A DNA stretch of 64,000 nt from Ruminococcus flavefaciens (GCA_023662725.1 JAMPIL010000008.1:4471-68470); one strand, 5' to 3'; counted from the stretch's first letter, positions 5,834-37,794 are shown. The notes: generated by a model from the letters alone, not told the origin. Numbers and translations are program-made.

Positions 5834-5834
5834 G

Positions 5835-17749: not shown

Positions 17750-20659
17750 ATGCCAAAATATACTGACGAACAGGTGGAACGTGCAAAAAATACCGACGTC
17801 CGCACGTTTCTTGAACAGACAGAGGGTTATACTTTTCAGAAAAGCGGAAAGTATCTTAAATGCCAAAATCCCGAAAGGACCGGACAGCCGTCCTCGCTTA
17901 CTGTGGATACCAACATGAACCGCATATTTTACAACTCTGAAACAGGCAACCGTCCGCTTTCCGCTTTGGACTGGTGCAAGGAAATAAAAAAGCTTGATTT
18001 TCAATCTTCCATGCAGCTTATTCTCGGTGAAAATCCACAGGGCGAAAGAGCCGAAAAGCCAAAGTATCAGCAGCACAGGTCAGAGCCTGTCAACAATGAA
18101 CCGAAAAGCCTTGAATTGTCCGAAAAATCGGATACGTCAAAAAATGTGTATGCCTATCTCACCAAAACAAGAGGTATTCCCGAAAACATCGTCAAGGACT
18201 GTCTTAATAAAAATCTCATATATCAGGACGTGAGAAAAAATGCCGTATTTGTAGGATATGACAATGATAACAATGCCAAATATGCCGCACGGCGCGGAAC
18301 GTTCACGCCAGATGGTAAAGAGCCTTTTAAGCGTGACTGCACAGGCAGCGACAAGAATTTTGCTTTCAGGTTAGAGGGCAAAAATACCGACACAATTTAC
18401 GTTGCAGAAGCCGCTATCGACGCACTAAGTCTTGCCGCACTGGAGGACAAATTTCACGGCAGCGGAGCGTATAAGGAAAAAACGTACATATCAACAGGCG
18501 GCGCAGGAATTGACAGCGCAGTAGAGCAGTTCTGCAAGACACACGACGTTAAAACAATCAACATCTGCTTTGACAATGACGAAGCCGGAAAGAACGGAAT
18601 GGAAAAAATAATGCAGCAATTCCGTGAGCAAGGCTATGAGGTAAACGATATGAGGGCAAGTCAGGCGCACGACTATAACGATGAGCTGCTTGCTTTCAAT
18701 CAAAATCCGCAGTTTTATCCTGAACCGCCGTTGACGGTAAGAACGGCTGCCGAAAACGTCCGCACGGAGAAAACAGAGAATATTCAGCCGCCCGAAGCTA
18801 CGGAAAACTATCCCGAACCGCCGATAAATGAAGCGGATATTCCTCCCGAAGATTATTATGCGTACTATGGCGAACCGGACATACCGCCGGAGGATTATTA
18901 CAACAGTTATGAGCAGTACGAAGAAGAAATACCGCCTATGCCCGAACCGATACAAGAAGAAAGGATTGATACCATGCCTGAAATTAGCGTAACGGAAAAT
19001 ACACAGCCGGAGGAAAAAAAGACAAAAGAGGTTGAACAGCCTGTTATGGAGGAAATTAAGACTGTTCCCGAACAGCCGCAGACAAGGATTGTTGAAATGG
19101 CTGAAAGCGTTAATAAGCCGAAAAAAGAGGAAGTTATTCTCCCGAAAAGAGAAGCAGTACCGCCAATACAGACAACTGAAAGCACAGAAAAAAAGCAGGA
19201 AATAAATTCTGTGTCCTCACAGCCGGAACGCAAGGTGGAATTTACCGAAAAACAGCTTGAAAACCTTGATACAGAGGGCAAAATGAATTTTTTGCTTGCT
19301 TCAATGAAAGACCGACAGGAAAATAAACGTGCAGAGCTGCTTGACAAAATCGATAGGATAGACAGCAAAATTGCCGACCGACAGGGACGCATAGACAAGC
19401 TGAATAATAAAATTGCGGATATTGAGACTTCCTTGAAAACGTCTGCTGCATTTAAACGTGCTTTTGGCAATACGCCCATCGGCAAGCTGATTGACAACAG
19501 CATTGAGAAAAAACAAGCCAAAATTCAAAAAATCCGTGAAACGAAAATCCCTAAACATAAAGAAAAACTGGACAGGCAGACCGATAAAAAAGCTAAATCC
19601 GTTAAACGTCTCGGCAAGGTAAATAGGAAAATTAACAAAATTGACAAAGTACAGGGATTTTTCACAGCTATAGGCAGCGATAATAGAGAGGAAAGGCATA
19701 AAGGATTTGTGAATGGTCTTGAAAGCCTTTCCAATATTCGCCGTGAAAGTCTTGAAAACAAGCTGCATAAGACTGAAACTAAAATTGATATGCTTTCGGC
19801 TAAATACAGTTCTCCCGATATTTCTCATACGGAGCGTTATGAGATAGGTAAAAATATTCGCTCTCTCAGAGCTAAATCCACCGTTTTATCCGACAAAATA
19901 GAGAACATGAACAAGCTGCACAGCGATTTGGACGATATAAAGAACGGTAAATTTACCGAAGCTGAAATTGAGACGGTTGTCAATAAGACTGCCGATAAAA
20001 TTTCAGAACGTTTTGAAAAATCCGATAATCAGGAAAAGGGCATTATCAACACGGTAATTGCCAATTCCGTTGAATCCGGAAGTGAAGCAATAAACGAAGT
20101 TACGGCGGAAAAGGCTATTGAACAGGCTGAAAAAAGTAAACCGTCTATTGAACGTGAACGTACTCCCGAAGAAAGAGAGCCTGACGTGAACAAGACAAAG
20201 GAGCTTGATATTTTGACAATGGCAGCGGTCATAACGGGTGTTAATATTTCTGAACTCAACAGACTTCCTGCTGAAATAAAGGCTGACATTGTCGCTGAAT
20301 TTCAGGAGAATAACGGCAATATTTCTTCTGAACAGCTTGCGGAAAGAATATGCGAAATTGCCGATATTGAGCCGCCCGAAGCGGTCAAACCGTCAGAACC
20401 TGAAATAAAGCCGCAAAAAAACAAAGAAAAGGAAAATCCTTTGCGTGAAATTGAGGAAATGACAGAATTGAATTATAACCACATTGACGGGATAATCAAT
20501 AATCTTCCGCCGGAAAAGCCAAAAGAAATTGAACCGGAAAAGGACGAACCTCTTTTTTCACGTTCAAAAATTATGGGAGATGATTTTAAGCCGACTTCCG
20601 AAAAATCGCAGGAGGATAAGGAAAAAAGCAAAAATAAAAACAGTCACATAGAACTGTAA
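17750..20659 (+). CDS. DUF3991/Toprim primase-like protein with long acidic and coiled-coil C-terminus
   Basis: YAYLTKTRGI, NAVFVG, VAEAAIDALS, ICFDNDEAG Toprim motifs, HDYND. Confidence 0.85.
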   Translation: MPKYTDEQVERAKNTDVRTFLEQTEGYTFQKSGKYLKCQNPERTGQPSSLTVDTNMNRIFYNSETGNRPLSALDWCKEIKKLDFQSSMQLILGENPQGERAEKPKYQQHRSEPVNNEPKSLELSEKSDTSKNVYAYLTKTRGIPENIVKDCLNKNLIYQDVRKNAVFVGYDNDNNAKYAARRGTFTPDGKEPFKRDCTGSDKNFAFRLEGKNTDTIYVAEAAIDALSLAALEDKFHGSGAYKEKTYISTGGAGIDSAVEQFCKTHDVKTINICFDNDEAGKNGMEKIMQQFREQGYEVNDMRASQAHDYNDELLAFNQNPQFYPEPPLTVRTAAENVRTEKTENIQPPEATENYPEPPINEADIPPEDYYAYYGEPDIPPEDYYNSYEQYEEEIPPMPEPIQEERIDTMPEISVTENTQPEEKKTKEVEQPVMEEIKTVPEQPQTRIVEMAESVNKPKKEEVILPKREAVPPIQTTESTEKKQEINSVSSQPERKVEFTEKQLENLDTEGKMNFLLASMKDRQENKRAELLDKIDRIDSKIADRQGRIDKLNNKIADIETSLKTSAAFKRAFGNTPIGKLIDNSIEKKQAKIQKIRETKIPKHKEKLDRQTDKKAKSVKRLGKVNRKINKIDKVQGFFTAIGSDNREERHKGFVNGLESLSNIRRESLENKLHKTETKIDMLSAKYSSPDISHTERYEIGKNIRSLRAKSTVLSDKIENMNKLHSDLDDIKNGKFTEAEIETVVNKTADKISERFEKSDNQEKGIINTVIANSVESGSEAINEVTAEKAIEQAEKSKPSIERERTPEEREPDVNKTKELDILTMAAVITGVNISELNRLPAEIKADIVAEFQENNGNISSEQLAERICEIADIEPPEAVKPSEPEIKPQKNKEKENPLREIEEMTELNYNHIDGIINNLPPEKPKEIEPEKDEPLFSRSKIMGDDFKPTSEKSQEDKEKSKNKNSHIEL

Positions 20660-20746
20660 CAAAACTTGTGCAAAGTGCCGAAATATAAAGTCAAGATAGA
20701 AATATCTTGACTTTAGCACTTTAATGTGATATAATATAATGGAGGA

Positions 20747-23700
20747 ATGGAAATGCAAAACAACAAGGTAAGTGAGGCACAAGCAATTTATATCAATGAA
20801 ATACGGCGTGTTCAGGAGACTGCCGAAAAGTGGAAAGATTTTCTTGATTTTGCGGCACAGGCACAGATAAGTGAAAATCAAAGTGAATTTGAATTCTCCT
20901 CAAAGCTTATTATCCATGCCGAAAATCCCAACGCAGCAGACTGTCGGACGTTCGGAGAGTGGAAAACAGCAGACGGAAATCATATCAAACAGGGGCAGCA
21001 CGGCATAGCCGTATTGTCCCGAAACAGCAAAGGAAATCAGTCTGTAACATATCTTTTTGACACAAGTCAGACTGCGCTTGCCAAAGAGCCTGAACGTCCC
21101 GAAATACCCGAAGAAATCAAAAATAATCTTAAATCCGCTTTAAGCGATGTGATTGAAATACATTCCGGTAACGCTTCATTTTCAGACGAACAGAAACGCA
21201 TTTTTGCGGCAACCGCCGAATACAGGCTGTGCAAACAGTACAGTCTTGAAACTGACGAAAATTCGGAAAGATTTTCGGGAATTGAAAAGCTGTCGGTAAA
21301 GGAAATTGCCAATATCGGAGTTTCTCTTAACAGGTGCAGTCAGTCGTTTTCCGACATTGTGAATAATGAGAGGAGTAATTTTTATGAGGCACAACGAAGC
21401 AATGATGGTCAATCAAGAGATGATAGGACGGAACTTTATAGACGAGAACAACGAGGAATGGATTTGGGTGGAGGGAGAAGCGGAAACTCCAATGCATATG
21501 AAGAAATACGACTTCAACGAGGAAACGAACAGGTGGGGCAAGCTGAACGAGGAACAGGGAGTATACGAGCCGATGTTTTGGGTACATCAGCCGAAGCCGA
21601 CAGCGGCAATGGGCAAGTACGGCAGCATGAGACTGAAATTCATATGGCAGACCCCTCACCTGATAGAAGCTATAATGCTGAACGAGGAACTGGACGTAGA
21701 GGAGCAGAACCTGAACAGGCACTGCGAGGAGATGAACGAGAAAGTTCTGAACCTGATAGAGGAAATCGTGGAGAAGAAAAAGCAGTCGGAGGAATACAAG
21801 GCGATAGAGGAATCGGGGAAATTCCTGCCGAAAGTGCAGATACTGGAGAGGTACAAAGCGGAAGCGGAGGAAGAAATACTTCCGGTGACGGTGTACGCGA
21901 TATAACGGAGAAAACGGCAGAACCTGAAAAGGTTTCTGCCGTTTCTGATTTGTCCGTTCAGGAAGAAACTCCGGAGGTAAATATTCAGCCTGAAATCAGC
22001 ATTGAAGCAAAACAGGGTGAAATTACTTCCGATATACTCAGGGGAAGTGGTATTCAGGGCGGTAAGCAAAGAATAGAAGCGTTCTATAACGAACAGCAGC
22101 CGAATAGAAAAGATTTTGCCGATTTTCTTAAAAATGAATACGGTATAGGCGGTCATTCAGGCAACGAACCGCTTAAAAGCCAATTTCACGACAGCAAAGG
22201 ACTTTCCTATAAATTTGCAGACGGCACGGACATTCGTCTGAGTTGGTCAGAAGCCGCAAAAAGAATATCGAATTTAATTGACAGAAATGAGTATCTTAAC
22301 GCCGATGAGATTACTCCGAATGACCTAAACGAGCGGAAAGAGAACAGGTCAGACCCTTTTGAAAACTCCAAACGTTCCAAAAACGGAGATGTTATCTTAG
22401 GCAACACAACTTTCAGATATATCCCCGAAAAAACCTATACCAAAATTGATAAAGACATAGCTGCCGAGGTATCGGAGCAGCTTGAAAAACAAGGCATAAA
22501 ATTTTCGGGAGTTATAAAGGGAGATACAGCAACAATTACCGTCAGCAAGCCGCAGAAAGAAACGCTTGATAAGATTATTGCGGATATTTCTTCTCCCGAC
22601 CTTGATGTACAGCTTTCTCAAAGTGAATTTATAGAAATCGCTTCAAATTTGCTATCGGCTGATACAACAGTTTCCAATGCGCATAAGTATTCCGACAAGC
22701 AGAATTACCGCACAGAAATTGATAACGGAATAGACCGTATTTTTACCGAAGCATTGACAGGAAACAGGGATATTGGTTATTCCGTTCCTGAAATGTCACA
22801 GCTTTGGAACGAATTTCAAAATGACAGTAATGTCCGTGAATATATTAGGAATATCGTTTCAGAAAATGTTGATATTTCTCTCACCGCCAATGAACAGCTT
22901 GAGATTTTTTCTAATGCTGAAAAAAACGATAAAGCAATATCCTTTTCAAGCTTGGATTTTGAAAAGAAAATTCCAAATGAAATGAGATGGAAAGAAAATT
23001 CTATTGTTGAGGATAACACAGCTTTATATTGGGTAACGCAAGAAATTTTTACCGAAGCTGACCTTGACAAATTTCAAGCGGCACTAAAAGATACCGATAT
23101 TAAAAAAGCCTATGTTATTCCCCGTGATTTAAGCGGATACAGCTTTGAGGACGATATGGCAAATAATACTCCATTTGCCGTTGTTACAAAAGACAGTATT
23201 TCCTGCAAGGACTATATTAACACAATAAAGTCCGTATATAATTATGATGTTTCAAAGCAACAGGAAGAAGAAAATATCGTCCAAAGTTCAGAGCAACGCA
23301 TATATGACCGCACAGAAGCCGCAATCACAAGGGATATGTACCAAACCGAAAATCCCGATGTGCTTGTTATAAAGGGCAGAGGCAGCCTTGCAAAGATTGA
23401 TATTTCCGTCAGTGATGAACTGTGGGAAAGACTTGCCGAAAAGGGACTTGTAAGGAACGAGGACAGCGTTGACAGGGTAATTTTTAATACCGATAACGGG
23501 AACTGGAACAAGCTTGTAATTCCCGATAAATGGGGAAATTTGACCAACAATATCAGTATCGAGGACGTTTTTACCCGTGAGGAATTGCAGACCGCTAAAT
23601 CCGTTGCGGATTTTGTTATCGGAAACGATGATGTTCAGCAAGTGCTTGACAATTTCAAAGAAGATATAACGTCTGTTGAAAATAACGTTAATGATGTCAA

Positions 23701-26700
23701 GGAAAGTGAGAGAATTTGTACGCCAATTCTTGAAACAGCGGACGAAAATGGCAGACCAACAAGCTATTCCACTAAATATAACGATAAATTTTATTGGATA
23801 AGCGAAAACGCTGACGGTAAGTACGATATTGAAACGGATTTCGGCAATGGTATCGTAAACGTAGGTGAGGAATATTCTGATTTTCCTGCAAGGTATCTTG
23901 CGGAAGAAGCCTTTGAGGACTATATTGCCGACGTTCTTTCAGCCGAACATGAAGCGGAAATAACCGAACCGCAGAATGAACCATTCTTGGAGGAAATAAG
24001 CGGCAATAACGGCACTGTCAAATATAAGGTCACGGAGAACGCTGACGAGCAGTACAAATACAATGTACAGATATTTACTCAGGGCGAAAACGGCGAATTT
24101 TATTACAGCGGCAGCGGTCGCTTCTGCGAAACACTCGATGAAGCTCATGCATTTATTGAAAATGATATTGCAGAGCGTACCGCCGAAAAGGATAGACAAC
24201 ATTCCGTTAAGGACGAAATTCCCGGAAACGATAAACATAACATTTCACAAGGACAGATGTCATTGTTCGATGATATTCCGGATACAGAGGAATTTTCCAA
24301 TGAAAAAAACTATCAGGTTGTCACCTATTCTAATGATTCGGGTGCAGATGATAAAAAGGATTTTCCTACACTGGACGAAGCCGTTGAAAAAGGCAGAAGT
24401 TATTTGTATGACAGGGAATACGAGGGTTATTATTCGGGCATTGCAATTCTTAACACAAAAGAACACAAGGTTGAATATTATGAGGGCGATTTCCCGTTAG
24501 AGGGTATTTTCAGCGAACAGGTATATCAAAACAGCGGTGAATGGCAACGTGTTGAAGCAACACCAAACGTATTTGACACGAATGCTCCGGGAGCTATGAA
24601 AACGGAACAGGCAAGACTTATGAATGAAAAAAGTGCCAATAAGTTAATTAAAAGCGGCGAAGTGGACATTCCTCTGCCACAGGATTTAGCTGCTCCGATA
24701 CAGTTTGAACAGTCTCCTTTAAATGCAGAGCGTGTCACGGTGACACACTCCGAAGCTTCGGCAGCTCCTGCCGAAGAAGTGGTTAAAACTCTCGACCTTG
24801 AAAATGACAAGCCGGAAGAAAAGAAGTCCGATAACCTTTTCCGCATAACAGACGGGCATTTGGGCGAGGGCAGCAAAAAAGAAAAATTCAAGAACAATAT
24901 TGAAGCTATAAAAACGCTGCAAATACTTGAAGCAGAAGAACGTGCTGCCACTCCCGATGAACAGGAAACATTATCAAAATATATCGGCTGGGGCGGTTTG
25001 CAGGAAGCCTTTGACGATTCAATCTCCGCTTGGAACGCCGAATATCACGAACTCAAAAATTTTATTTCCGAAGAAGAATACGAAGCCGCACGGTCTACCG
25101 TAAACGACGCATTTTACACCTCCCCTGTCATAACTCAGGCAATTTATGAGGGACTTGCTAATATCGGCTTTAACGGCGGCGAAGTACTTGAGCCGTCAAT
25201 GGGCATTGGAAACTTTTTCGGAACTATGCCCGATAAAATGCGTGAAAACAGTAATCTGTCGGGAATTGAAATTGACAGCATTTCAGGACGTATCGCACAA
25301 AAACTCTATCCCGAAGCCAACATTGCCATAAACGGTTTTGAAAATGTAAAGCCGCCGAAAGCTACTTTTGATTTGGCAGTCGGCAACGTTCCTTTCGGAA
25401 ATCACGGTGTAAACGACAAAACAAAAGTATATAAAGGACTTCTTATACACGACTATTTCTTTGCAAAATCACTTGACAGCGTTCGTCCGGGCGGTGTGGT
25501 ATCTTTTGTAACTTCAACAGGCACGCTCGATAAAGAAGATACGAAAGTCCGTCAAATGCTTGCACAAAAGGCGGAGCTTATGGGCGCGGTCAGACTGCCA
25601 AACAACGCTTTTCAGAAAAACGCAGGAACGCAAACGGCAACCGATATTATATTTTTGAAAAAGCGTGAAAAACCGCTTAATATCGGCGATATGCCTATGG
25701 ACAAATCCTGTGATTGGGTGCATACAAAGGAAAACTCCGACGGTCTTAAGATAAACAGCTATTTTGCCGACAATCCCGAAATGGTTTTAGGCGAACTTTC
25801 CGACAAGGGACGTTTCGGCAGTATAATCTGCACTCCGATTCAGGGCGCAGACCTTAAAGAGCAGCTCCATGAAGCTATGAAAAATATCAAGGGAGAGTAC
25901 TCTCCTCTTGAATTTCAGGCTGAACTTGACGAACGTGCGGAAAATAGCTACTTAACCGCAACTCCCGATATTGAAAATCTGACCTATACGGTTGTGGACG
26001 ATAAACTGTATTTCCGTGTTGACGATAATCTTATTCCGCTGAAAGAAAGCGAACAGCACGGAGTTACCGCCGAAAGGCGCAAAGCAATGAGCGGTCTTGG
26101 CGAAACTACCCGTGAACTTCTTCAGGCACAGGTCGAGGACAGACCCGACAAGGAAATAAAGCTGCTGCAAGCGGAGCTTAACGTTAAGTATGACAAATTC
26201 GTTCAGAAATTCGGACGGATAAATCCTATTGAAACGCCTAACCCACGAAATGCAAGCGGCGTTACAAGAAAAGCACCAAACAGCAACGTTTTCAAAAACG
26301 ACGTAAGACTTCCCCTTTTGCAGTCCCTTGAAAAAATGAAAGAGGGACAGTTTGTCGGTAAAACGGCTATTTTTACCGAAAGAACTATACGTCCCCGTAA
26401 AGTCGCAGAACACGTTGATACCGCACATGAAGCATTGATTTTGTCAATGTCCGAAAAGGGAAAAATTGATTTTGATTATATGCAGGACTTGACAGGCTTT
26501 GAGAAAGAAAAAATAATTTCCGATTTGCACGGTGACATCTACCCTGTTCCCGAACTTTCCACGGAAGATAACACTGTGTATCAAACAAGCGATGAATATT
26601 TATCGGGCAATATTTACAAGAAAATAGCTATGGCAGAAGCAAAAATATCCGAAAATCCTGCCTACGCTGAAAACGTTGCGGCTCTGACAGAAGTAATACC

Positions 26701-29700
26701 GAAACCGCTGAAAGCTACGGAAATAGATATGCAGCTCGGTATGACTTGGATCGATACAAAAATTATCAATCAGTTTATGTATGAGACTTTTGAAACTCCG
26801 CAGAGATTTAAGGAATATGACGGAGACGTGCCGCAGAAAAATCCCTCCGCTATAACGGTTGAATATTCGGGCGCAGGAAAAGGCTCTTGGAAAGTTGAAA
26901 ACGCACGTCTTGACAATTCCGTGAAGTCTACAAAAAATTTCGGTACAAAGGACTATAACGCTTATGAGCTGCTTGAAAAAATTCTGAACGCTAAATCTGT
27001 TGCGGTAACGCAAGTCGTGAGAGATGACGAGGGCAGACAAAAGACTGTAATTCTTGAAAAGCAGACAAAGACGGCGGAAGATAAGGTAAAACAAATAAAT
27101 GCCGCTTTCAAAAAATGGGTTTTTGCAGACCCCGAAAGACGCAACGAACTTGTCAAAACATATAACGAAAAATTTAACGGTATACGTCCCCGTGAATACG
27201 ACGGCAGCAATCTTAATTTCTTCGGTTCAAATCCCGAAATTACATTAAAGCCACATCAGAAAAACGCTGTCGCACACGCACTTTTTGGCGGCAATACGCT
27301 GTTTGCACATCAGGTTGGTGCCGGAAAAACGTTCGAGATGATAGCAACTGCTATGGAGGGAAAACGGCTCGGATTGCATAATAAGAGTATGTTTGTCGTT
27401 CCAAATCATCTGACGGAACAGATAGGCTCTGACTTTATGAAGCTGTACCCTAACGCAAATATTCTTGTCGCAAAGCCTGACGATTTTTCGCCGCAGAAGC
27501 GCAGACAGATGTGTGCGAGAATTGCAACAGGAAATTTTGACGCGGTAATTATCGGGCATTCGCAACTTATAAAAATACCCCTTTCCGCGAAGCGTGAAGA
27601 AGCCTTTATAAAAAATCAAATCGACGATATAGTGTCTGCTCTTGAAGCTGCCAAAGAAACAGACAACAAAAGCTACACGGTAAAGCAGCTTGAAGCCACA
27701 AGAAAAAATCTACGTGAACGTCTTGAAAAGCTTACTAACGGCACGGTCAAGGACAATGCGGTCACATTTGAGGAGCTTGGCGTTGACAAGCTGTTTGTGG
27801 ACGAAGCTCACGAGTTTAAAAACCTATATGTTTCAACAAAAATGGAGAATGTTTCGGGACTTTCAACTAATGCTGACGTTCAGAAAACGCAGGATTTGTA
27901 CATGAAATGTCAGTACCTTGACGAAAAAACGGACAGTAAAGGTATCGTTTTCAGCACGGGAACTCCTGTGACCAATGCTCTTTCGGAAATGTATACCACA
28001 ATGAAATATTTGCAGTCCGACTTGCTGAGAGAAACAGGTCTTGACAGCTTTGACGCGTGGGCAGGAAATTTCACAAGAAAATCTACCGAAGCTGAAATCT
28101 CGCCCAGCGGCAGCGACTGGAGAATGAAAACACGTCTTAAATTTACCAATGTTCCCGAACTTGTCACTATGTTTAAAGAATGTGCCGACGTAAAAATGGC
28201 TGACCAACTCAATCTTGACGTGCCTGAATGTGAAAAGCACATTGTTTCGGTAGAGCCGACAGAAGCGCAGAAAGCGGTTGTACACTCCCTTGCAATAAGA
28301 GCAGAAGCAATCAGCAAGGGAGAGGTTTCAAGAACAGAGGATAATATGCTTGTTGTAACGGGTGACGGAAGAAAGCTCGGTCTTGACCAACGGCTTTATG
28401 ACCTGAAACTGCCAGATGAACCGCAGACAAAGCTGAACGCTTGTATTCAGAACGTTTTTGATATTTGGGAAAAAACGTCCGACAAAAAATCAACGCAGCT
28501 TGTTTTCTGTGATTTGGGCGTACCGCAGTCCAAAGAGGATTTAAAGAAAAATGGTGAAAGGTTTGACGTTTATGCCGATATTCGTTCAAAGCTGATAGAA
28601 AAAGGCGTTCCCGAAAAGGAAATAGCCTTTATCCATGAAGCCAACAGCGAGACGGAAAAGGCGAAATTATTTGCCAAAGTCCGCAGCGGAGACGTTCGTG
28701 TGCTTATCGGTTCAACGCAAAAAATGGGCGCAGGAACTAACGTGCAGGACAAGCTTGTTGCACTTCACGACCTCGATTGTCCGTGGAGACCTGCCGACCT
28801 TACACAGCGTTTGGGACGTATGGTCCGGCAAGGCAACGAGAACAAGAAAGTAGATAATTTCAGATATGTTACTAAAGGCACGTTCGACGCGTATCTGTAC
28901 CAAATGGTGGAGAAAAAGCAGGAGAGCATTTCGCAGATTTTCACTTCAAAGGCTATTGCACGAACCTGTGACGATATTGACGATATGGCTGTGGACTTAA
29001 TGCAAGTCAAAATGGCTGCTGTCGGCGATGACCGTATCAGGCGGCAAATGGAACTCAAAGAGGATATTCGCAGTCTGAATATGCTGAAAAATACATACCT
29101 TGAAAACAAATATGAAATCGAGGACAATATAAAAAGGCTGCCGGAAAAAATATCACGAACCGAAAAAATAATCGAGGGAATTGCCGCCGACACAAAAACG
29201 GTAAATGGGTATGTTCCTAAAAAAGACATTGACGGTCAGGAAATTTTTGAAATGCAAGTCGGAAATACCTTATACGTTGAAAAAAAAGAAGCGGCGGAAG
29301 CTCTCAAAACCGCTATGACAACTGCTGTTGTGGGAAATCCTAAAGCGCAGACGGATATAGCCGAATACAAAGGCTTCAAAATTGCAGTTTCCTATGACAG
29401 CTTCACAAAATCATACACGGGACACCTAAAAGGCGAAAACAGCTATCAATTTGAATTTGGCAGCAGCGAAAGCGGAAATATGACGAGAATAGATAACGCT
29501 ATTGCCGCAGTTCCGCTGCGTATTGACGGAGCTTGCAACGAGCTTGACCGCTTGAAAACAGAGCTTGCCGACAGTATAAAGGAAGTTGATAAACCATTTG
29601 AGCATGAAGCGGAGCTTGAGGAAAAGAAGCAGGAGCTTGAACGTTTGACAGATGAGATAAATGCCGATAAGGTCAAGGGTGAGATTGCTCCGGAGCAGCC

Positions 29701-30136
29701 GGAAAGTACGGAAAAATCTTCTGAAAAAGCTGAAAATCAGGCAGAAAAAGCCGGAAATCTCAACATAAAATGGCGGCAGAACGATAAGGAGCTTCGCATA
29801 ACCTATGACAGTACCGCCGAAAACAAAATTACTGCGTATTCTGACGGAAAAGAAATAGGACACTGCACTCCCGATGAGCTGACGGTCACAAAAATAAGCG
29901 AGAGCGAACAGAAGAATTATCCCGACGGAATAAACAAATGCGTTAAGCCGCTTAATCTTGCGTTCAGCAATAAAATCTCCATGCACATAAGAGAGTTTGC
30001 TGTAAGGGTCAGAGCTGCCGAAAAGTCCGCTGAAAAGGACGATAAGGCTCTTTTCTCCCGTGACAGAATTATGAGTGATGAATTTAAGCCGACTTCGGAA
30101 AAAACTTCCGATACTCCTAAACAGCAGGAGCATTGA
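20747..30136 (+). CDS. Giant DarB-like protein: ArdC-like N-terminus, N6-adenine methyltransferase, SNF2 helicase
   Basis: WKDFL..TFGEWK..YLFDTSQT (ArdC-like); EPSMGIGNF and VGNVPF (MTase); HQVGAGKT, VDEAH, QRLGRMVRQGN (SF2 helicase). Confidence 0.9.
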   Translation: MEMQNNKVSEAQAIYINEIRRVQETAEKWKDFLDFAAQAQISENQSEFEFSSKLIIHAENPNAADCRTFGEWKTADGNHIKQGQHGIAVLSRNSKGNQSVTYLFDTSQTALAKEPERPEIPEEIKNNLKSALSDVIEIHSGNASFSDEQKRIFAATAEYRLCKQYSLETDENSERFSGIEKLSVKEIANIGVSLNRCSQSFSDIVNNERSNFYEAQRSNDGQSRDDRTELYRREQRGMDLGGGRSGNSNAYEEIRLQRGNEQVGQAERGTGSIRADVLGTSAEADSGNGQVRQHETEIHMADPSPDRSYNAERGTGRRGAEPEQALRGDERESSEPDRGNRGEEKAVGGIQGDRGIGEIPAESADTGEVQSGSGGRNTSGDGVRDITEKTAEPEKVSAVSDLSVQEETPEVNIQPEISIEAKQGEITSDILRGSGIQGGKQRIEAFYNEQQPNRKDFADFLKNEYGIGGHSGNEPLKSQFHDSKGLSYKFADGTDIRLSWSEAAKRISNLIDRNEYLNADEITPNDLNERKENRSDPFENSKRSKNGDVILGNTTFRYIPEKTYTKIDKDIAAEVSEQLEKQGIKFSGVIKGDTATITVSKPQKETLDKIIADISSPDLDVQLSQSEFIEIASNLLSADTTVSNAHKYSDKQNYRTEIDNGIDRIFTEALTGNRDIGYSVPEMSQLWNEFQNDSNVREYIRNIVSENVDISLTANEQLEIFSNAEKNDKAISFSSLDFEKKIPNEMRWKENSIVEDNTALYWVTQEIFTEADLDKFQAALKDTDIKKAYVIPRDLSGYSFEDDMANNTPFAVVTKDSISCKDYINTIKSVYNYDVSKQQEEENIVQSSEQRIYDRTEAAITRDMYQTENPDVLVIKGRGSLAKIDISVSDELWERLAEKGLVRNEDSVDRVIFNTDNGNWNKLVIPDKWGNLTNNISIEDVFTREELQTAKSVADFVIGNDDVQQVLDNFKEDITSVENNVNDVKESERICTPILETADENGRPTSYSTKYNDKFYWISENADGKYDIETDFGNGIVNVGEEYSDFPARYLAEEAFEDYIADVLSAEHEAEITEPQNEPFLEEISGNNGTVKYKVTENADEQYKYNVQIFTQGENGEFYYSGSGRFCETLDEAHAFIENDIAERTAEKDRQHSVKDEIPGNDKHNISQGQMSLFDDIPDTEEFSNEKNYQVVTYSNDSGADDKKDFPTLDEAVEKGRSYLYDREYEGYYSGIAILNTKEHKVEYYEGDFPLEGIFSEQVYQNSGEWQRVEATPNVFDTNAPGAMKTEQARLMNEKSANKLIKSGEVDIPLPQDLAAPIQFEQSPLNAERVTVTHSEASAAPAEEVVKTLDLENDKPEEKKSDNLFRITDGHLGEGSKKEKFKNNIEAIKTLQILEAEERAATPDEQETLSKYIGWGGLQEAFDDSISAWNAEYHELKNFISEEEYEAARSTVNDAFYTSPVITQAIYEGLANIGFNGGEVLEPSMGIGNFFGTMPDKMRENSNLSGIEIDSISGRIAQKLYPEANIAINGFENVKPPKATFDLAVGNVPFGNHGVNDKTKVYKGLLIHDYFFAKSLDSVRPGGVVSFVTSTGTLDKEDTKVRQMLAQKAELMGAVRLPNNAFQKNAGTQTATDIIFLKKREKPLNIGDMPMDKSCDWVHTKENSDGLKINSYFADNPEMVLGELSDKGRFGSIICTPIQGADLKEQLHEAMKNIKGEYSPLEFQAELDERAENSYLTATPDIENLTYTVVDDKLYFRVDDNLIPLKESEQHGVTAERRKAMSGLGETTRELLQAQVEDRPDKEIKLLQAELNVKYDKFVQKFGRINPIETPNPRNASGVTRKAPNSNVFKNDVRLPLLQSLEKMKEGQFVGKTAIFTERTIRPRKVAEHVDTAHEALILSMSEKGKIDFDYMQDLTGFEKEKIISDLHGDIYPVPELSTEDNTVYQTSDEYLSGNIYKKIAMAEAKISENPAYAENVAALTEVIPKPLKATEIDMQLGMTWIDTKIINQFMYETFETPQRFKEYDGDVPQKNPSAITVEYSGAGKGSWKVENARLDNSVKSTKNFGTKDYNAYELLEKILNAKSVAVTQVVRDDEGRQKTVILEKQTKTAEDKVKQINAAFKKWVFADPERRNELVKTYNEKFNGIRPREYDGSNLNFFGSNPEITLKPHQKNAVAHALFGGNTLFAHQVGAGKTFEMIATAMEGKRLGLHNKSMFVVPNHLTEQIGSDFMKLYPNANILVAKPDDFSPQKRRQMCARIATGNFDAVIIGHSQLIKIPLSAKREEAFIKNQIDDIVSALEAAKETDNKSYTVKQLEATRKNLRERLEKLTNGTVKDNAVTFEELGVDKLFVDEAHEFKNLYVSTKMENVSGLSTNADVQKTQDLYMKCQYLDEKTDSKGIVFSTGTPVTNALSEMYTTMKYLQSDLLRETGLDSFDAWAGNFTRKSTEAEISPSGSDWRMKTRLKFTNVPELVTMFKECADVKMADQLNLDVPECEKHIVSVEPTEAQKAVVHSLAIRAEAISKGEVSRTEDNMLVVTGDGRKLGLDQRLYDLKLPDEPQTKLNACIQNVFDIWEKTSDKKSTQLVFCDLGVPQSKEDLKKNGERFDVYADIRSKLIEKGVPEKEIAFIHEANSETEKAKLFAKVRSGDVRVLIGSTQKMGAGTNVQDKLVALHDLDCPWRPADLTQRLGRMVRQGNENKKVDNFRYVTKGTFDAYLYQMVEKKQESISQIFTSKAIARTCDDIDDMAVDLMQVKMAAVGDDRIRRQMELKEDIRSLNMLKNTYLENKYEIEDNIKRLPEKISRTEKIIEGIAADTKTVNGYVPKKDIDGQEIFEMQVGNTLYVEKKEAAEALKTAMTTAVVGNPKAQTDIAEYKGFKIAVSYDSFTKSYTGHLKGENSYQFEFGSSESGNMTRIDNAIAAVPLRIDGACNELDRLKTELADSIKEVDKPFEHEAELEEKKQELERLTDEINADKVKGEIAPEQPESTEKSSEKAENQAEKAGNLNIKWRQNDKELRITYDSTAENKITAYSDGKEIGHCTPDELTVTKISESEQKNYPDGINKCVKPLNLAFSNKISMHIREFAVRVRAAEKSAEKDDKALFSRDRIMSDEFKPTSEKTSDTPKQQEH
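21384..21905 (+). CDS. tnpV: TnpV-like protein nested in the +1 frame of the giant helicase ORF
   Basis: SD GAGAGGAG (21368-21375) 8 nt before ATG; MGKYGSMRLKF...AEAEEEIL...VY matches TnpV family pattern. Confidence 0.7.
   Translation: MRHNEAMMVNQEMIGRNFIDENNEEWIWVEGEAETPMHMKKYDFNEETNRWGKLNEEQGVYEPMFWVHQPKPTAAMGKYGSMRLKFIWQTPHLIEAIMLNEELDVEEQNLNRHCEEMNEKVLNLIEEIVEKKKQSEEYKAIEESGKFLPKVQILERYKAEAEEEILPVTVYAI
24732..24749 (+). repeat. Dispersed palindrome copy 7 (intragenic, encodes VTVTH)
   Basis: GTGTCACGGTGACACACT inside the giant helicase. Confidence 0.9.
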
Positions 30137-30878: not shown

Positions 30879-30962
30879 TTTTTGTACATATATACAAAAT
30901 TAAATTTTGCCGAAAGAAAACAGGGGTTTTCAGGCATTTATTAAGCAGAGGAGTGAAATTGT

Positions 30963-31769: not shown

Positions 31770-31782
31770 CAGGAGAAAATTT

Positions 31783-32241: not shown

Positions 32242-32262
32242 AGTGTGTCACGGTGACACACT
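32242..32262 (+). repeat. Dispersed palindrome copy 8
   Basis: Perfect 21-bp palindrome starting at the base after the stop codon. Confidence 0.95.
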
Positions 32263-32538
32263 ATGAAAGGCGGTGGTTATATTGATTGTATAAATTAATT
32301 CTGGACTTTTTTCACACAACCAAAACATTCGGAGAAATCCAAACGGATTAAGAGACATATTTTTTAACTTACATTTCGGACGTACTACAAAAATACATCA
32401 GGATTGACAGAACGGTTTTCTCCTCACACTTGAAAGTGAGGAATTACTATGAAAATGACAAAAAGAATTGCTGCTATGGTGGCTTGTGCGGTTATGGCTG
32501 CAACATCTATGGTTGGCATTGGTGCTTCGGCGGCTGAT
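32258..32538 (+). repeat. Direct repeat copy A: leader plus signal-peptide coding region
   Basis: 32331-32480 aligns with 34491-34640 with about 7 mismatches in 150 nt by eye. Confidence 0.9.
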
Positions 32539-33126: not shown

Positions 33127-33143
33127 TAAAGGCTGATATATTT

Positions 33144-34406
33144 ATGAAAATAAACATTGCCCATTTAATAAAATGCTGCTTTGTGCTAAGTACAGTGTTG
33201 TTATGTTCATGCTCAAATAACAAAACAATCAGCACTAATTCTGATATTTCAGTTACTTCTGCGGATTTTCAAATTCAAAGCACAAGTCAATCAAACATTG
33301 AAGATATAACTGAAACTTCTGATATTTCTGATGTTGAGGTTATGCACATTAATGAACAGGTAAAATATATTTCAGATTATACAGAACTTAATGCAGACAA
33401 ATGGGATTGTGCTAAATTACGTCTTGAATGTTTTTCGGGCAATGATTTATTTCTAACATATTCAAATAATGATATGTTAGAGATATATAAAATCAACACG
33501 GAAAATAATGACAATAAATTAATTGGAACGTGTAATTGGTCTGTAATGTATGGCTTTCTAAGTACAGTAATTGGGAATCGTTATTTTGTTATTATGCCAT
33601 CAAAAGCCGTTCTTAACGGACTGAAATCTACTTTATATGTATATGATATACATAGTGATGAATTTTATAGTGCCGATACCTTTTTGGCATACAATATGGT
33701 ACAGTATATAACTAATATAAGCGACAATAAAATTGCGTATTATTACTATGAAAATAAATCCAAAGACTGGGTTATAAAGGAATATGATTTTATTACAAAA
33801 ATCAGTAAAGAGTTGTATCATAACAACAGTGATGAAGATAAGCGATTTTCTCCTGTAGGATTAACATACAATGGTGAAAATCTTGTCTTAGCTGTTCAAT
33901 ACTATAACAATGAACTTGTAACTGAAACAAAATTTATTGAAATTGATATGCAAGGTAACAAAGTACAAGAAAATAGACTAAATGATTTCCCTATTGCAAT
34001 TGGATATGAATTAAACTTTGACGGTAAATATTACAATGTGTGCGGCAATAAGTATCGTGCAACAATTGAACTTTCATCTATGGTTATTGATTTGCAGGCT
34101 AATAGTTTTGACACTATTTTACCTTTATCTGCCGATTTAACCGTTCCAACAAATCTTAATAACAATAGACAATTATGCATCAACATAATTCAGTGTAATA
34201 AAAATGACTTTGCATTAATTGATACCAACAGAAATAATTTGACTTATTTTAATATTGAAGTTCCTGATTATAACGATATACATTCAAGCGTAAGTAATGA
34301 GAACAATGACCTTGCTGTTATAAAATGTGATGAAAATTACAATAATTTCAAGTTGATTATTGTTAAAAACAGTGCAATTTGTGATAGTTCTTTTGAGGAC
34401 AATTGA
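33144..34406 (+). CDS. Lipoprotein, probably beta-propeller-like
   Basis: Lipobox LLCSC; Ser/Thr-rich linker; beta-rich body. Confidence 0.65.
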   Translation: MKINIAHLIKCCFVLSTVLLCSCSNNKTISTNSDISVTSADFQIQSTSQSNIEDITETSDISDVEVMHINEQVKYISDYTELNADKWDCAKLRLECFSGNDLFLTYSNNDMLEIYKINTENNDNKLIGTCNWSVMYGFLSTVIGNRYFVIMPSKAVLNGLKSTLYVYDIHSDEFYSADTFLAYNMVQYITNISDNKIAYYYYENKSKDWVIKEYDFITKISKELYHNNSDEDKRFSPVGLTYNGENLVLAVQYYNNELVTETKFIEIDMQGNKVQENRLNDFPIAIGYELNFDGKYYNVCGNKYRATIELSSMVIDLQANSFDTILPLSADLTVPTNLNNNRQLCINIIQCNKNDFALIDTNRNNLTYFNIEVPDYNDIHSSVSNENNDLAVIKCDENYNNFKLIIVKNSAICDSSFEDN

Positions 34407-34417
34407 TTTCGACTAAT

Positions 34418-34701
34418 ACACTGTGAAAGAGGTAGTTATCTTGATTGTATTAACTGATTTTCGACTTCTATCATACATAAATAAAACTTTGGAGAACTCC
34501 AAACGGATTAAGAGACATATTTTTTAACTTACTTTTCGGACGTACCACAAAAATACATCAGAATTGACAGAACGGTTTTCTCCTCACCTATGAAAGTGAG
34601 GAATTACTATGAAAATGACAAAAAGAATTGCTGCTATGGTAATGTGCAGCGTTATGGCTGTTTCTTCTATGGTTGGTATGGGGGCATCGGCAGCAGCAGA
34701 T
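34418..34701 (+). repeat. Direct repeat copy B: leader plus signal-peptide coding region
   Basis: Same leader and MKMTKRIAAMV start as copy A, offset 2160 bp. Confidence 0.9.
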
Positions 34702-35523
34702 GACTATGGAAACACTATATCAACTGCGTATACTCTTACAACAAGCGGTTGTTATGGAACAATTAATTATGCCGGAGATGCTGATATGTTTTCCTTTACC
34801 CCATCAATTTCCGGAATTTATTATTTTTATACAACGGGAAGTACCGATACAACAGGAACATTGTACAATTCAAACGGTTCTATAATAAAATCATCTTCTT
34901 GGGGATTTGCAAAAGACAAAAATATGATGGTTGCAGCAGAGCTTAAGGCAGGAACTAAATATTATATTGCAGTTACTGGTTCATACTCTTCGACTACTGG
35001 TGGATATGAAATCAACGTTGGCAGAGATAGTTTATCTGTACGTGTTAATAGACTTGCACAGGCAGATTCACGTTAGAACAATGTACATCTTGGAAATATT
35101 AGTAGCAATCCAACAATAGGAAGTAAAGGATGTGCCTTAACTACTTTTACAATGGTTTTAAATTTTTGGAATAGCAGTTCCAAAACACCTCAAGATGTTA
35201 ACGATACTATGGGAGCGGCGGCTTATGATTTTCAGTGGTCAACTGCCAAATCAAAATATGGACTACAGCTGGCACAAGAAGGCTCATCCACTGCACATAC
35301 CACTACGAGTAAGGGAACTTCGTTTGCAATTGAACAATTAAAATTAGGCAGACCCGTTATTATTGGAATGACAAGTCCCACTACTACTCATTTTGTTGTT
35401 GCAACTGCTTATTATAATAATGAAATATACATAAAGGATCCTGCTGGTAGAAATTATACTAAACTATCACAGTACACAAATACCTCATACTCTATATATG
35501 AGGTATTTGCTTATTATAAATAA
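34609..35523 (+). pseudogene. Secreted PPC-domain plus C39-like peptidase interrupted by in-frame TAG (35074-35076)
   Basis: Frame continues through TAG: QADSR*NNVHLG...TIGSKGCALT..HFVV..KDP; the stop sits where C39_2 has the Trp of Q.D.RW. Confidence 0.8.
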
Positions 35524-35544
35524 TCAATTTAAAGGTGATGTAAT

Positions 35545-36312
35545 TTGAAAAAAATGATTTATATTATAATTTTGGCATTAACGAATTTAATGTGTATTAC
35601 AGCTTGTAGTTCCATTACTGAAAGTATCAACACACAAGCCGCAGAAAGTAGTTCAATAGAGACAGAATATAACATAGAATTAAATTCAGAAAATGTATCT
35701 ACAACCATTGAAATTGACAGTAAGATTAAATCAGAGCTAATTAATATTATCGAATGTTACTATCACCTTAAAGATTTAATTGGCGGACGATATTGTTATA
35801 TCACAGGACATTATGAAACAAGAAATTTAAACAATGAATATTCATCAAATGAATTCAAATATGATATGGAGATTAAATATTGCAAATTTGACACACTTGA
35901 CGATTTTTATTCAATATATGAAGAGCTGTTTTTCAGAAATAATAAAGCAATTGTTTTTTCTTCTTCAAATATTACAAGAAATGATTATGAAGAAATGGCG
36001 TTATCCTATATGACAATGGAATTTTATAATAAAAATTTTTATGGAATTTTTGATGATATTATTGACGATGATAATTATATTAGTCCGTCAAAATATTGGT
36101 ATTGTAATGGAAATTTATTAATAAATCTAAGCTCAGACTATATATATGGCGGCATAAATGACTATAATTATTTTACTATAGATAAAATTACAAACAATAG
36201 TGTTGTAATTACAACAGTAAGGAAATACTCTGAGCTTGATAGTCATGTACAGTTTTCATTTGTATTGGAAAATAATTTGTGGAAATTATCAGATATTTAT
36301 TATTTAGATTAG
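35545..36312 (+). CDS. Lipoprotein
   Basis: AAGGTGA SD, TTG start, lipobox ITAC; C-terminal ENNLWKLSDI motif. Confidence 0.65.
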   Translation: MKKMIYIIILALTNLMCITACSSITESINTQAAESSSIETEYNIELNSENVSTTIEIDSKIKSELINIIECYYHLKDLIGGRYCYITGHYETRNLNNEYSSNEFKYDMEIKYCKFDTLDDFYSIYEELFFRNNKAIVFSSSNITRNDYEEMALSYMTMEFYNKNFYGIFDDIIDDDNYISPSKYWYCNGNLLINLSSDYIYGGINDYNYFTIDKITNNSVVITTVRKYSELDSHVQFSFVLENNLWKLSDIYYLD

Positions 36313-36330
36313 CTAAATAATAACATTATT

Positions 36331-36374
36331 AATAGCCGTGACAGAACAGTTGGGTCTGTCACGGCTATTTTTTA
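36331..36374. terminator. Bidirectional terminator between convergent operons
   Basis: AATAGCCGTGACAG...CTGTCACGGCTATT stem with T-rich flanks. Confidence 0.85.
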
Positions 36375-36390
36375 TTATTTGTCCATTCCT

Positions 36391-37794
36391 CTATAACTCC
36401 AAATTATTATTTTTAGTCCTGCCAATATCCTTGTCCTTACTGCTCGTAGGAGCATACTTGTCAGAACTGATTTCGGCGATTGAGAATAAAGGCTCTTTTT
36501 CTTGTTCATATTTCTTTTCAGAAATAGGTGGAACGGTTGGTTTAACTGTTCTGCGTTCAGGCTTGACAGGTTTCTTTTTCACCTGTTCCGCAGCTCGCTT
36601 TTCCTTGCCGAACATTGAAACAGCTTTTTTCAGTTTGTCCTTAATATCAGAGAAAAAATTATATATACTGCTTTCGGCAGTGTGTGTACCCTTTTCAATT
36701 TTAGACTTAGCCTTAGTCAGAGCTTGCGGTGTTTCAAGCGTGACAAGTTTGACCGACATCGTTCCATTCTCGTTTTGAGTTTCTTTTGTAAGCGTGATTT
36801 TTGATGATACTTTAGTATTGGGCATTTTTTCACGCTTCTCAATTTCCGCATTGACTGCTTTTATTTCATTCAGAATAATATCTTTAACATCACTGTTGTG
36901 TGGGTCTTGTGCCTGAGCCGTAAGCCTTTCAGCAACATTTTTAAGCATATCGGAATTGTAAATAGTTCTGTTGCTGAATACCGACAGCTTCTTTTCGTAG
37001 GCTTTTTTAGCGGATTCCGAATGTGTTTCCGCATACTTTGTCCTCTTGCTTCTAAGCTGTTTTAAATCGGCTTTAATGGTCGAATACTCGGAATTATTCA
37101 GTACTTTTTCATGCAGCCGCTGACGTTCTTCTGTCGGAATTTCTATAATGCACCTGTCAACATTGTTTACCTTGTCGTGTTCAACGAGTGAAACTATCTT
37201 AATCTCCTGAACGCTTCTGCGACCGTCGTTGTTGTATGTCCTGTCAGAGGGGAACTGTGACATTCCGTGAGCAATATTAGGATTATTTTTATCGAGCTTG
37301 AAAAAAGCATATATTCTTTCATCGGGAGTTTTCTTGTTTTCCGGTTCAAATACAAGCATAAAGTCAGCAGCGATTTCAGAGCTGTAAGGGCGGTGGGTTC
37401 TATGACAGTCCGAATTCCACGAATACGCTTTTACATTACTGCTGTTCAGAACATCACGAAAATTCGTAAGAGTATCTATTCTATCATCGAGGGTATAAGC
37501 CACGCCATTTTTTTGAGGGTCGTTAAATACATCTCCCCAAAAGCTGCTTTCCGAAATATCCTGATATGTAATATCACTGTCAAGTATTTTATTAAGTAAT
37601 TCTGAACTGCTTATTTCCGATTGATTTATAATATCGCTTAACTTCTCCAATCCGGATAAGTGCATAAAGTGACTTCTGTTTAAAGTAAAGGAGGCTTCGC
37701 TTATTGTTCCGGAATTATACAGTTCGATTTTGTATTCATATTCACTGTTTTGAAGATATGCAGCAGCACAATCATGTAATTTATCATTTTCCAT
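36391..37794 (-). CDS. PBECR4-family (Barnase/EndoU/Colicin/RelE-like) nuclease with long C-terminal extension
   Basis: SHFMHLSGLEKLSDI, ITYQDISES, SEIAADFML motifs match PBECR4; the C-terminal half is coiled-coil and Lys-rich. Confidence 0.75.
   Translation of the reverse strand: MENDKLHDCAAAYLQNSEYEYKIELYNSGTISEASFTLNRSHFMHLSGLEKLSDIINQSEISSSELLNKILDSDITYQDISESSFWGDVFNDPQKNGVAYTLDDRIDTLTNFRDVLNSSNVKAYSWNSDCHRTHRPYSSEIAADFMLVFEPENKKTPDERIYAFFKLDKNNPNIAHGMSQFPSDRTYNNDGRRSVQEIKIVSLVEHDKVNNVDRCIIEIPTEERQRLHEKVLNNSEYSTIKADLKQLRSKRTKYAETHSESAKKAYEKKLSVFSNRTIYNSDMLKNVAERLTAQAQDPHNSDVKDIILNEIKAVNAEIEKREKMPNTKVSSKITLTKETQNENGTMSVKLVTLETPQALTKAKSKIEKGTHTAESSIYNFFSDIKDKLKKAVSMFGKEKRAAEQVKKKPVKPERRTVKPTVPPISEKKYEQEKEPLFSIAEISSDKYAPTSSKDKDIGRTKNNNLEL

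Follow-up and report, generated by a model that had tools for sequence, protein, structure and literature searches.

The stretch of DNA analysed here (64,000 nt of Ruminococcus flavefaciens, GCA_023662725.1 JAMPIL010000008.1:4471-68470; hereafter the window) contains most of one integrative conjugative element (ICE). Three of ~45 genes in the window, all of them large ICE genes, encode proteins that carry close to their C-termini a copy of one 21-residue motif with the consensus [DE]xP[LM]FS[RI]xxI[MSK]SDx[FY]xPTSxK, which is referred to as the type A tag. The carriers are a primase-like protein, a giant polyvalent protein and a protein with a PBECR4 domain. The strict regular expression LFS..{2}I..D.[FY].PTS.K was matched at exactly three places in six-frame translation of the 64 kb window. 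Tag copies were scored with a 21-column core hidden Markov model (HMM), which was built without tail columns and scanned over all stop-to-stop open reading frames (ORFs) of at least 30 aa.

The primase-like gene (17750..20659, + strand; 969 aa) was assigned by Pfam matches to DUF3991 and Toprim_2. Its product consists of an N-terminal DUF3991 plus Toprim_2 part, a long coiled-coil or charged middle, a small helical domain, a disordered linker with the DUF4316 motif and the tag; the ORF ends in ...KDEPLFSRSKIMGDDFKPTSEKSQEDKEKSKNKNSHIEL. The 22-residue peptide of the original prediction, KDEPLFSRSKIMGDDFKPTSEK (20540-20605, + strand), contains the core DEPLFSRSKIMGDDFKPTSEK (21 codons, 20543..20605, + strand; 46.3 bits), and behind it a 17 aa tail of mixed charge, SQEDKEKSKNKNSHIEL (20606..20656, + strand), ends in h-E-h (...HIEL). 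The giant polyvalent gene (20747..30136, + strand; 3129 aa) encodes an ArdC-N-like N-terminal module, the N6-adenine methylase motifs YTSP 1457 and NVPF 1547 (located by motif scan), a SNF2/ResIII/Helicase_C region (Pfam, 2165-2696) and the tag at its end (...KDDKALFSRDRIMSDEFKPTSEKTSDTPKQQEH). The predicted peptide was KDDKALFSRDRIMSDEFKPTSEK (30035-30103, + strand), the core is DKALFSRDRIMSDEFKPTSEK (30041..30103, + strand; 42.0 bits) and the tail is TSDTPKQQEH (10 aa, 30104..30133, + strand). The PBECR4-domain gene (Pfam; 36391..37794, − strand; 467 aa) is convergent with the + strand block; its PBECR4 module, a predicted barnase/EndoU/RelE-like nuclease, comprises residues 5-171, and the ORF ends in ...KEPLFSIAEISSDKYAPTSSKDKDIGRTKNNNLEL. 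The core KEPLFSIAEISSDKYAPTSSK (36436..36498, − strand; 40.6 bits) is followed by the 14 aa tail DKDIGRTKNNNLEL (36394..36435, − strand; ...NLEL). All three copies in the window thus sit 10-17 residues ahead of the stop.

All three predicted peptides were recovered where they had been placed, each followed by a short charged tail (HIEL, QQEH, NLEL). The proteins had been described as not adjacent, which was correct for the PBECR4 gene (6 kb downstream and on the opposite strand) and incorrect for the primase and giant genes, which are neighbours with 88 bp between them. The absence of any other similarity among the three proteins was confirmed: with the last 45 residues removed, the best blastp alignment had E = 1e-3 and 19% identity and covered charged or coiled-coil sequence.

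No Pfam model covers the motif, and a profile search of the PDB with the tag retrieved no similar chain. Identity with Pfam DUF4316 (PF14195) was considered and rejected: DUF4316 lies directly upstream of the LFS…PTS core and ends at the K that opens the predicted 22-residue peptide, and its HMM gave no match to the giant and PBECR4 tails even at E ≤ 10. A repeat at the DNA level or a recombination site was rejected on codon usage and on the opposite strand of the PBECR4 copy. The PBECR4 and primase copies are 48% identical in nucleotides; 11 of 21 residues are kept, nine of these 11 through different codons. Because the PBECR4 copy keeps these residues with different codons on the other strand, the motif is judged from its sequences to be selected at the protein level. 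The primase and giant copies are 78% identical in nucleotides (49/63). A comparison of 39 distinct primase tails gave near-invariant motif columns amid a drifting linker, and the most conserved half of the motif is IMSDxFxPTSxK.

A model of the last 170 primase residues was calculated with AlphaFold from a 22-sequence alignment (mean predicted local distance difference test score, pLDDT, 67.7). It starts with a small helical domain modelled with confidence, runs on into a disordered linker (pLDDT 40-50) and, past the tag, finishes in a floppy tail; the tag forms a pLDDT 70-76 island with two short helical turns. Such an island after a disordered linker is the signature of a short linear recognition motif. 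An amphipathic helix or membrane anchor was rejected, the hydrophobic moment being no better than that of shuffled sequences. In the tails K+R and D+E are about equal in number (primase 4/4, giant 1/2, PBECR4 3/3); basic tails were seen only in some relaxases, e.g. P0032 (...RGRRR). The final residues of carriers differ widely (HIEL, QQEH, NLEL, IGG, AQSK, RGRRR, GQGR). In the same linker of the primase, DUF4316 occupies 20429-20542 (primase residues 894-931) as a short motif, NPLRxxExxxExNxNxxDGxxNN, upstream of the tag. This motif is confined to the primase class, was modelled by AlphaFold as two short low-confidence helices and may be a second linear recognition motif.

The position of the tag within proteins was determined in loci and in a protein database. 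Since the core HMM contains no tail columns, it has no built-in preference for protein ends. The window and 16 loci (310,773 aa) yielded 26 matches of 27-46 bits, all 10-19 aa before the stop, the next best score being 7.4 bits; 20 metagenome loci (281,942 aa) added 30 matches with the same spacing and a next best score of 4.9 bits. A 43-position profile was then run in an exhaustive search without word index against 1.84 billion representative proteins (E ≤ 1e-3). It matched 33 proteins of 46 to 3722 aa, and in 33/33 the match ends 0-19 residues from the C-terminus; this search supersedes a word-indexed search with a tail alignment, which had retrieved only four short fragments. Internal copies were absent from all 56 locus matches (about 590,000 aa of ICE-locus ORFs) and all 33 database matches, which bears out the C-terminal bias that had been expected of the motif. 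Among primase homologues 46/76 are tagged, 15-21 aa from the end; the tagged set includes every full-length homologue of roughly at least 50% identity along its length, and the untagged ones are truncated or distant. Overall the tag lies 10-24 aa from the C-terminus, except in one relaxase sequence that ends inside the motif. Five unrelated families all place the motif in the last 45 residues, for which the probability under random position is about 6e-7, so that a chance origin is excluded.

Wherever the genomic context was readable, no carrier was found outside conjugative or mobilizable elements, as the original prediction required, and the related loci are ICEs. At three of the loci (L001, L002 and L007) a Firmicutes-type ICE (GC content 36-42%) was found in metagenome-assembled genomes (MAGs) labelled Alistipes (Bacteroidota); the label probably reflects a binning error, the other option being cross-phylum transfer.

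The carriers form at least five families that are mutually unrelated once the tails are removed. These are the primase-like proteins; the giant polyvalent proteins, including P0009, which has in common with the giants only their N-terminal ArdC-N-like module; the PBECR4 proteins, of which the homologues P0029, P0011 and one in L007 are also tagged; a very acidic 436 aa protein (P0018/P0031), encoded in L013 between the tagged primase and the giant gene; and MobA/MobL relaxases. Two small orphans are further carriers. A carrier of ~724 aa in L044-L046 and L011 was rejected as a new family, because an inserted element has split a giant gene here and the carrier is its C-terminal portion.

Some carrier genes were found in rearranged form. 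The primase-like gene is at times present as two ORFs, of which the N-terminal one (Toprim, 642-674 aa) lacks the tag and the C-terminal one (490-645 aa) bears it (P0079-P0083 versus P0005 and P0028). In L044-L046 (e.g. L046 3563-9990) a small insert with a MobA/VirD2-type relaxase and a serine recombinase splits the giant SNF2 gene, and the leftover ~724 aa C-terminal ORF is still terminated by the tag. A 'CVKPL' box was noted ~55 residues upstream of the tag in the giants (~29920-29960 in the window). In L049 (4041-12257) a DUF6674 protein (944 aa) and a primase-polyvalent protein (1676 aa) have in common a C-terminal module of ~50 aa (CVKPLxExGVTL...). This locus carries the longer common module instead of a short tag, and shared C-terminal modules may therefore extend beyond short tags.

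The fifth family includes P0032, a MobA/MobL relaxase (Pfam, 4e-78) that ends in ...QPLFSKEKIMSDKFTPTSEQQEEVTRHISRGRRR. Among MobQ relaxases with the catalytic domain of P0032, 32/120 carry the type A tag (20-42 bits, 13-24 aa from the end; an example tail is DKPLFSKDKVMSDEFKPRSE...), and the best score among the untagged ones is −1.1 bits. One of the 32, P0180, stops inside the motif and looks truncated. Three contigs with type A relaxases were read: L012 (5.7 kb, 20 bp terminal overlap, Rep_3 and Mob), L022 (13.4 kb, Rep_3, a toxin-antitoxin pair and four lactococcin-972 genes) and L023 (4.2 kb, with a toxin gene and lactococcin-972 genes as in L022). No type IV secretion system (T4SS) genes were found on any of the three, which from their gene content look like small mobilizable plasmids. 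The terminal overlaps of L012 and of the type B contig L025 are consistent with circles. Relaxases are the obligate protein substrate of a T4SS. The relaxase of a plasmid without a T4SS must engage the coupling protein of a helper, and a docking signal would be the simplest reason for it to bear the same peptide as an ICE primase, giant and nuclease.

Other ICE lineages were found to use other tails, which occur in common on primase, ArdC-like, giant and small proteins of one element. Distant primase homologues without the type A motif end in ...FFLSKDEEEFEF or ...FSFSKDEDIEV. In elements with TopoIII, an FtsK-gamma protein, a primase+MuF_C protein and a 2678 aa giant (L020/L021), a type B tag with the consensus G[FY]F[SE]Rx[KR]LxxE[AS] occurs on three adjacent proteins (GFFSRERLRRES, GFFSRKKLTKEA and CYFERAKLKKEA), with 22-28 residues from motif to C-terminus. 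In elements with a TraC-like VirB4, an ArdC-N/MPTase protein, a type IV coupling protein (T4CP) and a primase (L017 and L019), the elements of these distant primase homologues, a type C tag with the consensus ...[FS]F[SA]KDx[DE]E[LFM]E[FL]-COOH occurs on three or four unrelated proteins per element. It ends the primase as well as the ArdC-N/MPTase protein (...ISFSKDDEELEF, ...FSFAKDIDEELEL), and it is also found on small ORFs of 131-203 aa (...SEDEELEF, ...QNEEMEF, ...IDEELEF). Types B and C each rest on two or three loci. When 1808 ORFs were cross-scanned with regular expressions, each tag type was found only in its own lineage. The kernel common to types A and B reads hydrophobic-F-S-R-x-[KR]-[IL], and type C keeps F-S-K.

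The tag types also cross over onto relaxases. A MobQ relaxase, P0212, on L025 (5.0 kb contig, 76 bp terminal overlap, Rep_3) ends in AYFSRAKLKESAKQVK..., which is the type B tail minus one residue, so that MobQ relaxases of one catalytic domain bear type A, type-B-like or other tails. On the plasmid L047, where the relaxase tail is FVFSKERRAEI..., a second protein with the same tail was not found. That a tail is common within an element, different between elements and switched among relaxases favours the element over the host as the source of the receptor. With 32/120 MobQ relaxases tagged, common tails specific to lineages and tag types switched on one relaxase domain, the original reading of a portable export tag on a set of ICE proteins has gained support.

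In L013, also a type A locus, a short coupling-protein-like gene (4200-5381; 393 aa) lies between topoisomerase III and the tagged primase. Its product is 25% identical to the T4CP of the window, with the alignment starting at window residue 70, so that the N-terminal part is missing; it is probably a paralogue and may be a soluble substrate adaptor. The type B T4CP lies outside the locus read, which leaves the L013 gene as the only one comparable for T4CP against tag type.

The remaining genes of the ICE in the window are untagged. The T4CP (VirD4-like, CD1115 family; 33..1685, + strand) was assigned by Pfam and by NCBIfam NF045973 (558 bits, cutoff 250). The T4SS channel block (1990..10218, + strand) consists of a VirB6-like channel gene (1990-2982, + strand), a VirB4-like ATPase of the CD1110 family (3308-5833, + strand; 918 bits), a CD1108-like protein of 1040 aa (5835-8957, + strand) and a CD1107-like protein (9259-10218, + strand). 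Between the last of these and the tagged primase lie Lar-like, Macro, topoisomerase III and C5-methylase genes. Downstream of the PBECR4 gene ParB-like and ParA genes are followed by the relaxase of the ICE itself, which has a MobA/VirD2-like nuclease domain of MOBP type (Pfam, NCBIfam; 48948..50309, − strand). A large serine recombinase (Resolvase + Recombinase + Zn_ribbon_recom + DUF4368 by Pfam; 52126..53856, + strand) is the integrase at the right end of the element. By HMM scan and inspection of tails, the tag was not found on the T4SS parts, TopoIII, the C5-methylase, ParA/ParB or the relaxase of this ICE.

Between the giant and the PBECR4 gene, the block 30414-36312 encodes a sigma-70-like factor, a DUF4367 protein, two C39-like cysteine peptidases and several ORFs without a family match; L046 is syntenic with the start of this block (sigma factor, DUF4367 and one C39-like peptidase). 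The serine recombinase adjoins nrdD (anaerobic ribonucleotide reductase; 53888-56452, − strand), which carries a LAGLIDADG intein. A cell-wall hydrolase, an N6/N4 methylase and a RecD-like helicase past nrdD possibly belong to another mobile element or prophage.

Taken together, these sequence data favour a reading, to which we assign a probability of about 0.62, in which the tag is a portable short linear motif that recruits its carriers to the conjugative T4SS for transfer into recipients, likely via the CD1115-family coupling protein or an adaptor. Presented by a flexible linker and set at a short, constant distance from the free C-terminus, the tag would dock its carrier either on the coupling protein or on a bound adaptor, and the docked carrier would pass through the T4SS into the recipient during conjugation. 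The cargo would be useful at DNA entry: a primase, a methylase/SNF2/ArdC-like giant, a PBECR4 nuclease, an acidic protein and an ArdC-N-like protein. Small mobilizable plasmids without a T4SS have put the tag on their MobQ relaxase and would thereby gain access to the channel of a helper element. The ICE's own relaxase would enter by the relaxosome route with a small upstream accessory gene, as in other systems (PMC12857230), and the tag would be a route for 'effectors' and foreign relaxases. We infer both export by the tag and a VirD4-type T4CP as its receptor, the T4CP at 33..1685 being the presumed candidate. Because ICE lineages use different tags (types A, B and C), the tag may also encode specificity.

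Plasmid primases such as Sog and TraC, ArdC and relaxases are classic transferred proteins of Gram-negative plasmids. Polyvalent proteins have been predicted to be delivered by conjugation along with DNA (PMC5512222), and T4CPs read C-terminal signals (PMC8406263). A wider proposal is put forward tentatively, at a little under even odds: Gram-positive T4SSs would have a lineage-specific C-terminal 'zip code' (types A, B and C, with the kernel hydrophobic-F-S-[RK]) that defines the injected proteins, among them primase, nucleases and effectors of the anti-restriction and polyvalent kinds, and mobilizable plasmids would exploit one particular helper by giving their relaxase a copy of its tag.

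Several observations weigh against recruitment to the T4SS. In contrast to the Agrobacterium signal the tails have no net positive charge, and the core does not form an amphipathic helix. At 3129 aa the giant would be a very large substrate to unfold and thread. The sole comparison of T4CP with tag type is between the window and L013, where both loci are type A and the T4CP-like protein, a probable paralogue, is 25% identical. The MOBP-type relaxases encoded by the ICEs are untagged in the type A element (48948-50309) and in a type C element (L019 13831-15159), so that the tag is not a universal entry ticket; set beside the tagged MobQ plasmid relaxases, these sequences suggest two separate recruitment routes. 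No culturable or annotated plasmid with the tag was found in PLSDB, where the nearest relaxase (Ruminococcus albus 7, NC_014827.1) matches the catalytic domain only, and MAGs and metagenomes (Oscillospiraceae, Ruminococcus, Clostridia) are the source of every tagged sequence.

Four other explanations were weighed. The tag could tether DNA-processing carriers to a common DNA partner, such as a host or element SSB (a protein that binds single-stranded DNA), the sliding clamp, a protein of the replisome or of cell division, or the relaxosome, and in this way gather them on the strand being transferred, whether in the donor or in the recipient. Every carrier that could be identified works on nucleic acids, and the motifs by which clamp, SSB and FtsZ partners bind usually take the form of a short peptide at the C-terminus, preceded by a disordered linker. 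In the PLF/FS kernel there is a loose resemblance, which we take as a lead only, to QL[SD]LF clamp motifs and to the FtsZ-tail box P-x-F-x-R, and the type C tail ...DEEEFEF-COOH is reminiscent of the acidic tips of SSB and TraD. When aligned to the clamp motif, however, the tag columns read [DEK]-x-[PAT]-[LM]-F; the Gln of QL[SD]LF is missing and the best-conserved part, IMSDxFxPTSxK, lies downstream and has no counterpart in clamp motifs, so that the tag does not appear to be a β-clamp motif. The tag diverges between ICE lineages in related Clostridia although the clamp, SSB and FtsZ partners of the host are conserved, which again argues for an element-encoded receptor. TopoIII, ParB, the C5-methylase and the ICE relaxase are DNA proteins of the same element and yet are untagged, and plasmids with only Rep and Mob would gain little from tethering and need access to a T4CP. 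Tethering is considered unlikely, although it is the strongest of the four. An escort complex, in which the carriers bind each other or a dedicated element protein through the tag and ride passively with the relaxase-bound T-strand without being recognized one by one by the T4CP, is somewhat less probable still. In F-like plasmids the translocation of several proteins needs relaxosome assembly and DNA transfer (PMC8406263), and tagged genes are often neighbours (primase-giant in the window, primase-P0018-giant in L013). MobQ relaxases, though, pilot their own T-strand and are nevertheless tagged, and in the AlphaFold model the motif is short and stands alone, and nothing points to a self-associating domain. 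Such a complex would in any case be a sub-variant of recruitment that is hard to tell apart by sequence alone.

A degron or processing site, by which host Clp/Lon or the element's own C39-like or MPTase peptidases would degrade potentially toxic element proteins and so limit their levels in the donor, is regarded as improbable. Some carriers could indeed be toxic (the PBECR4 nuclease, the SNF2/methylase giant), the window has two C39-like peptidases and L017/L019 encode an MPTase domain. Known C-terminal degrons, however, need a conserved extreme C-terminus, and the widely varying last residues of the carriers are not those of an ssrA-like degron with conserved free C-terminal residues. Cutting 30-40 residues from the end would take off only the tag; the peptidase types differ among elements with a common tag, and the tagged plasmids encode none. 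Least credible of all, with hardly any weight, is a functionless recombination scar or a hitch-hiking 3' gene end copied between genes. The nucleotide identity of the primase and giant copies is compatible with recent copying between neighbours, but the synonymous divergence of the PBECR4 copy, the near-invariance of the motif across dozens of diverged homologues with drifting flanks and the fixed position relative to the C-terminus in at least five families form a selection pattern that already disfavours a scar.

Should the proposal of a lineage-specific zip code be correct, the tag type would predict from sequence alone which ICE mobilizes which plasmid, together with the conjugative 'effectorome'. 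The choice of substrates by coupling proteins in Gram-positive conjugation is essentially undefined, and the sharp consensus makes the question directly testable. The tag would also offer a handle on the gut mobilome, by listing the proteins co-injected with DNA (anti-defence and establishment factors acting before gene expression) and by pairing the very abundant small mobilizable plasmids, as hitchhikers, with their helper ICEs.

The tag was compared with the known transport signals of T4SSs. The Agrobacterium VirB/D4 substrates VirE2, VirE3 and VirF carry a C-terminal transport signal (Vergunst et al. 2005, as cited in PMC8406263). Like this signal and the BID-plus-tail signal of Bartonella, both of which are read by a VirD4-type coupling protein, the tag is C-terminal, portable, found on unrelated substrates and placed in an unstructured tail. 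Theirs is an Arg-rich pattern of net-positive charge without a sharp consensus, whereas the 21 residues of the tag are near-invariant and include hydrophobic anchors and a PTS box, and the type A tails, of mixed charge, contain no Arg-rich pattern of the R-x7-R-x-R-x-R kind. The host system also differs, being a monoderm conjugative T4SS of the CD1115/CD1110 family. The Legionella Dot/Icm signals (E-block, hydrophobic residue near the end) are likewise short C-terminal determinants and occur on hundreds of unrelated effectors. The type C tails of L017/L019 (...DEEEFEF, ...DDEELEF), Glu-rich with a terminal hydrophobic residue, are much like the E-block and fit its definition (Glu-rich within the last ~20 residues), whereas type A is of mixed charge and does not. 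The systems differ as well: Dot/Icm is of type IVB and translocates effectors of a Gram-negative pathogen, whereas the one considered here serves conjugation in gut Clostridia. In the Xanthomonas antibacterial T4SS, the effectors share a conserved C-terminal module, XVIPCD, that binds the all-alpha domain of VirD4 (PMC8740702). As with the tag, a C-terminal module is common to otherwise unrelated proteins of one system, but XVIPCD is a folded domain of ~120 aa, and the conservation of the tag covers ~21 columns in a disordered region with no relative in the PDB. The tag is not an internal folded relaxase signal of the TraI TSA/TSB type either, being terminal, linear and missing from the ICE relaxase. 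By analogy, the tag would thus work like the C-terminal signals of VirB/D4, Dot/Icm and Xanthomonas while falling outside their specific definitions.

The tagged carriers belong to the same functional classes as Sog (ColIb-P9), TraC (RP4), ArdC and the relaxases of mobilizable plasmids. Further proteins transferred in Gram-negative conjugation are SSB, PsiB and ParB of the F plasmid (PMC8406263), and the R1162 MobA relaxase-primase has two signals (Meyer 2015, as cited in PMC8406263). The signals of these Gram-negative proteins are internal, diffuse or accessory-dependent, with no common sequence tag known, in contrast to the present set, which is united by one motif. For Gram-positive systems, no sequence-defined signal is described in two reviews (PMC8406263, PMC12857230) or in the paper on polyvalent proteins (PMC5512222). 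A 2025 review states that for substrate choice in these systems "experimental evidence is limited" and cites only the TraJ-TraA contacts of pIP501 (PMC12857230). The tagged giant (ArdC-N-like + methylase + SNF2) and the PBECR4 protein belong to the class of polyvalent proteins of Iyer et al. (2017; PMC5512222), who proposed the N-terminal ArdC-N domain as a delivery 'header' and mentioned no C-terminal motif. The tag differs in lying at the opposite end from this header and in occurring also on MobQ relaxases, which are not polyvalent; if it acts in recruitment to the T4SS, it would supply the missing delivery determinant for the polyvalent proteins predicted by these authors (PMC5512222).

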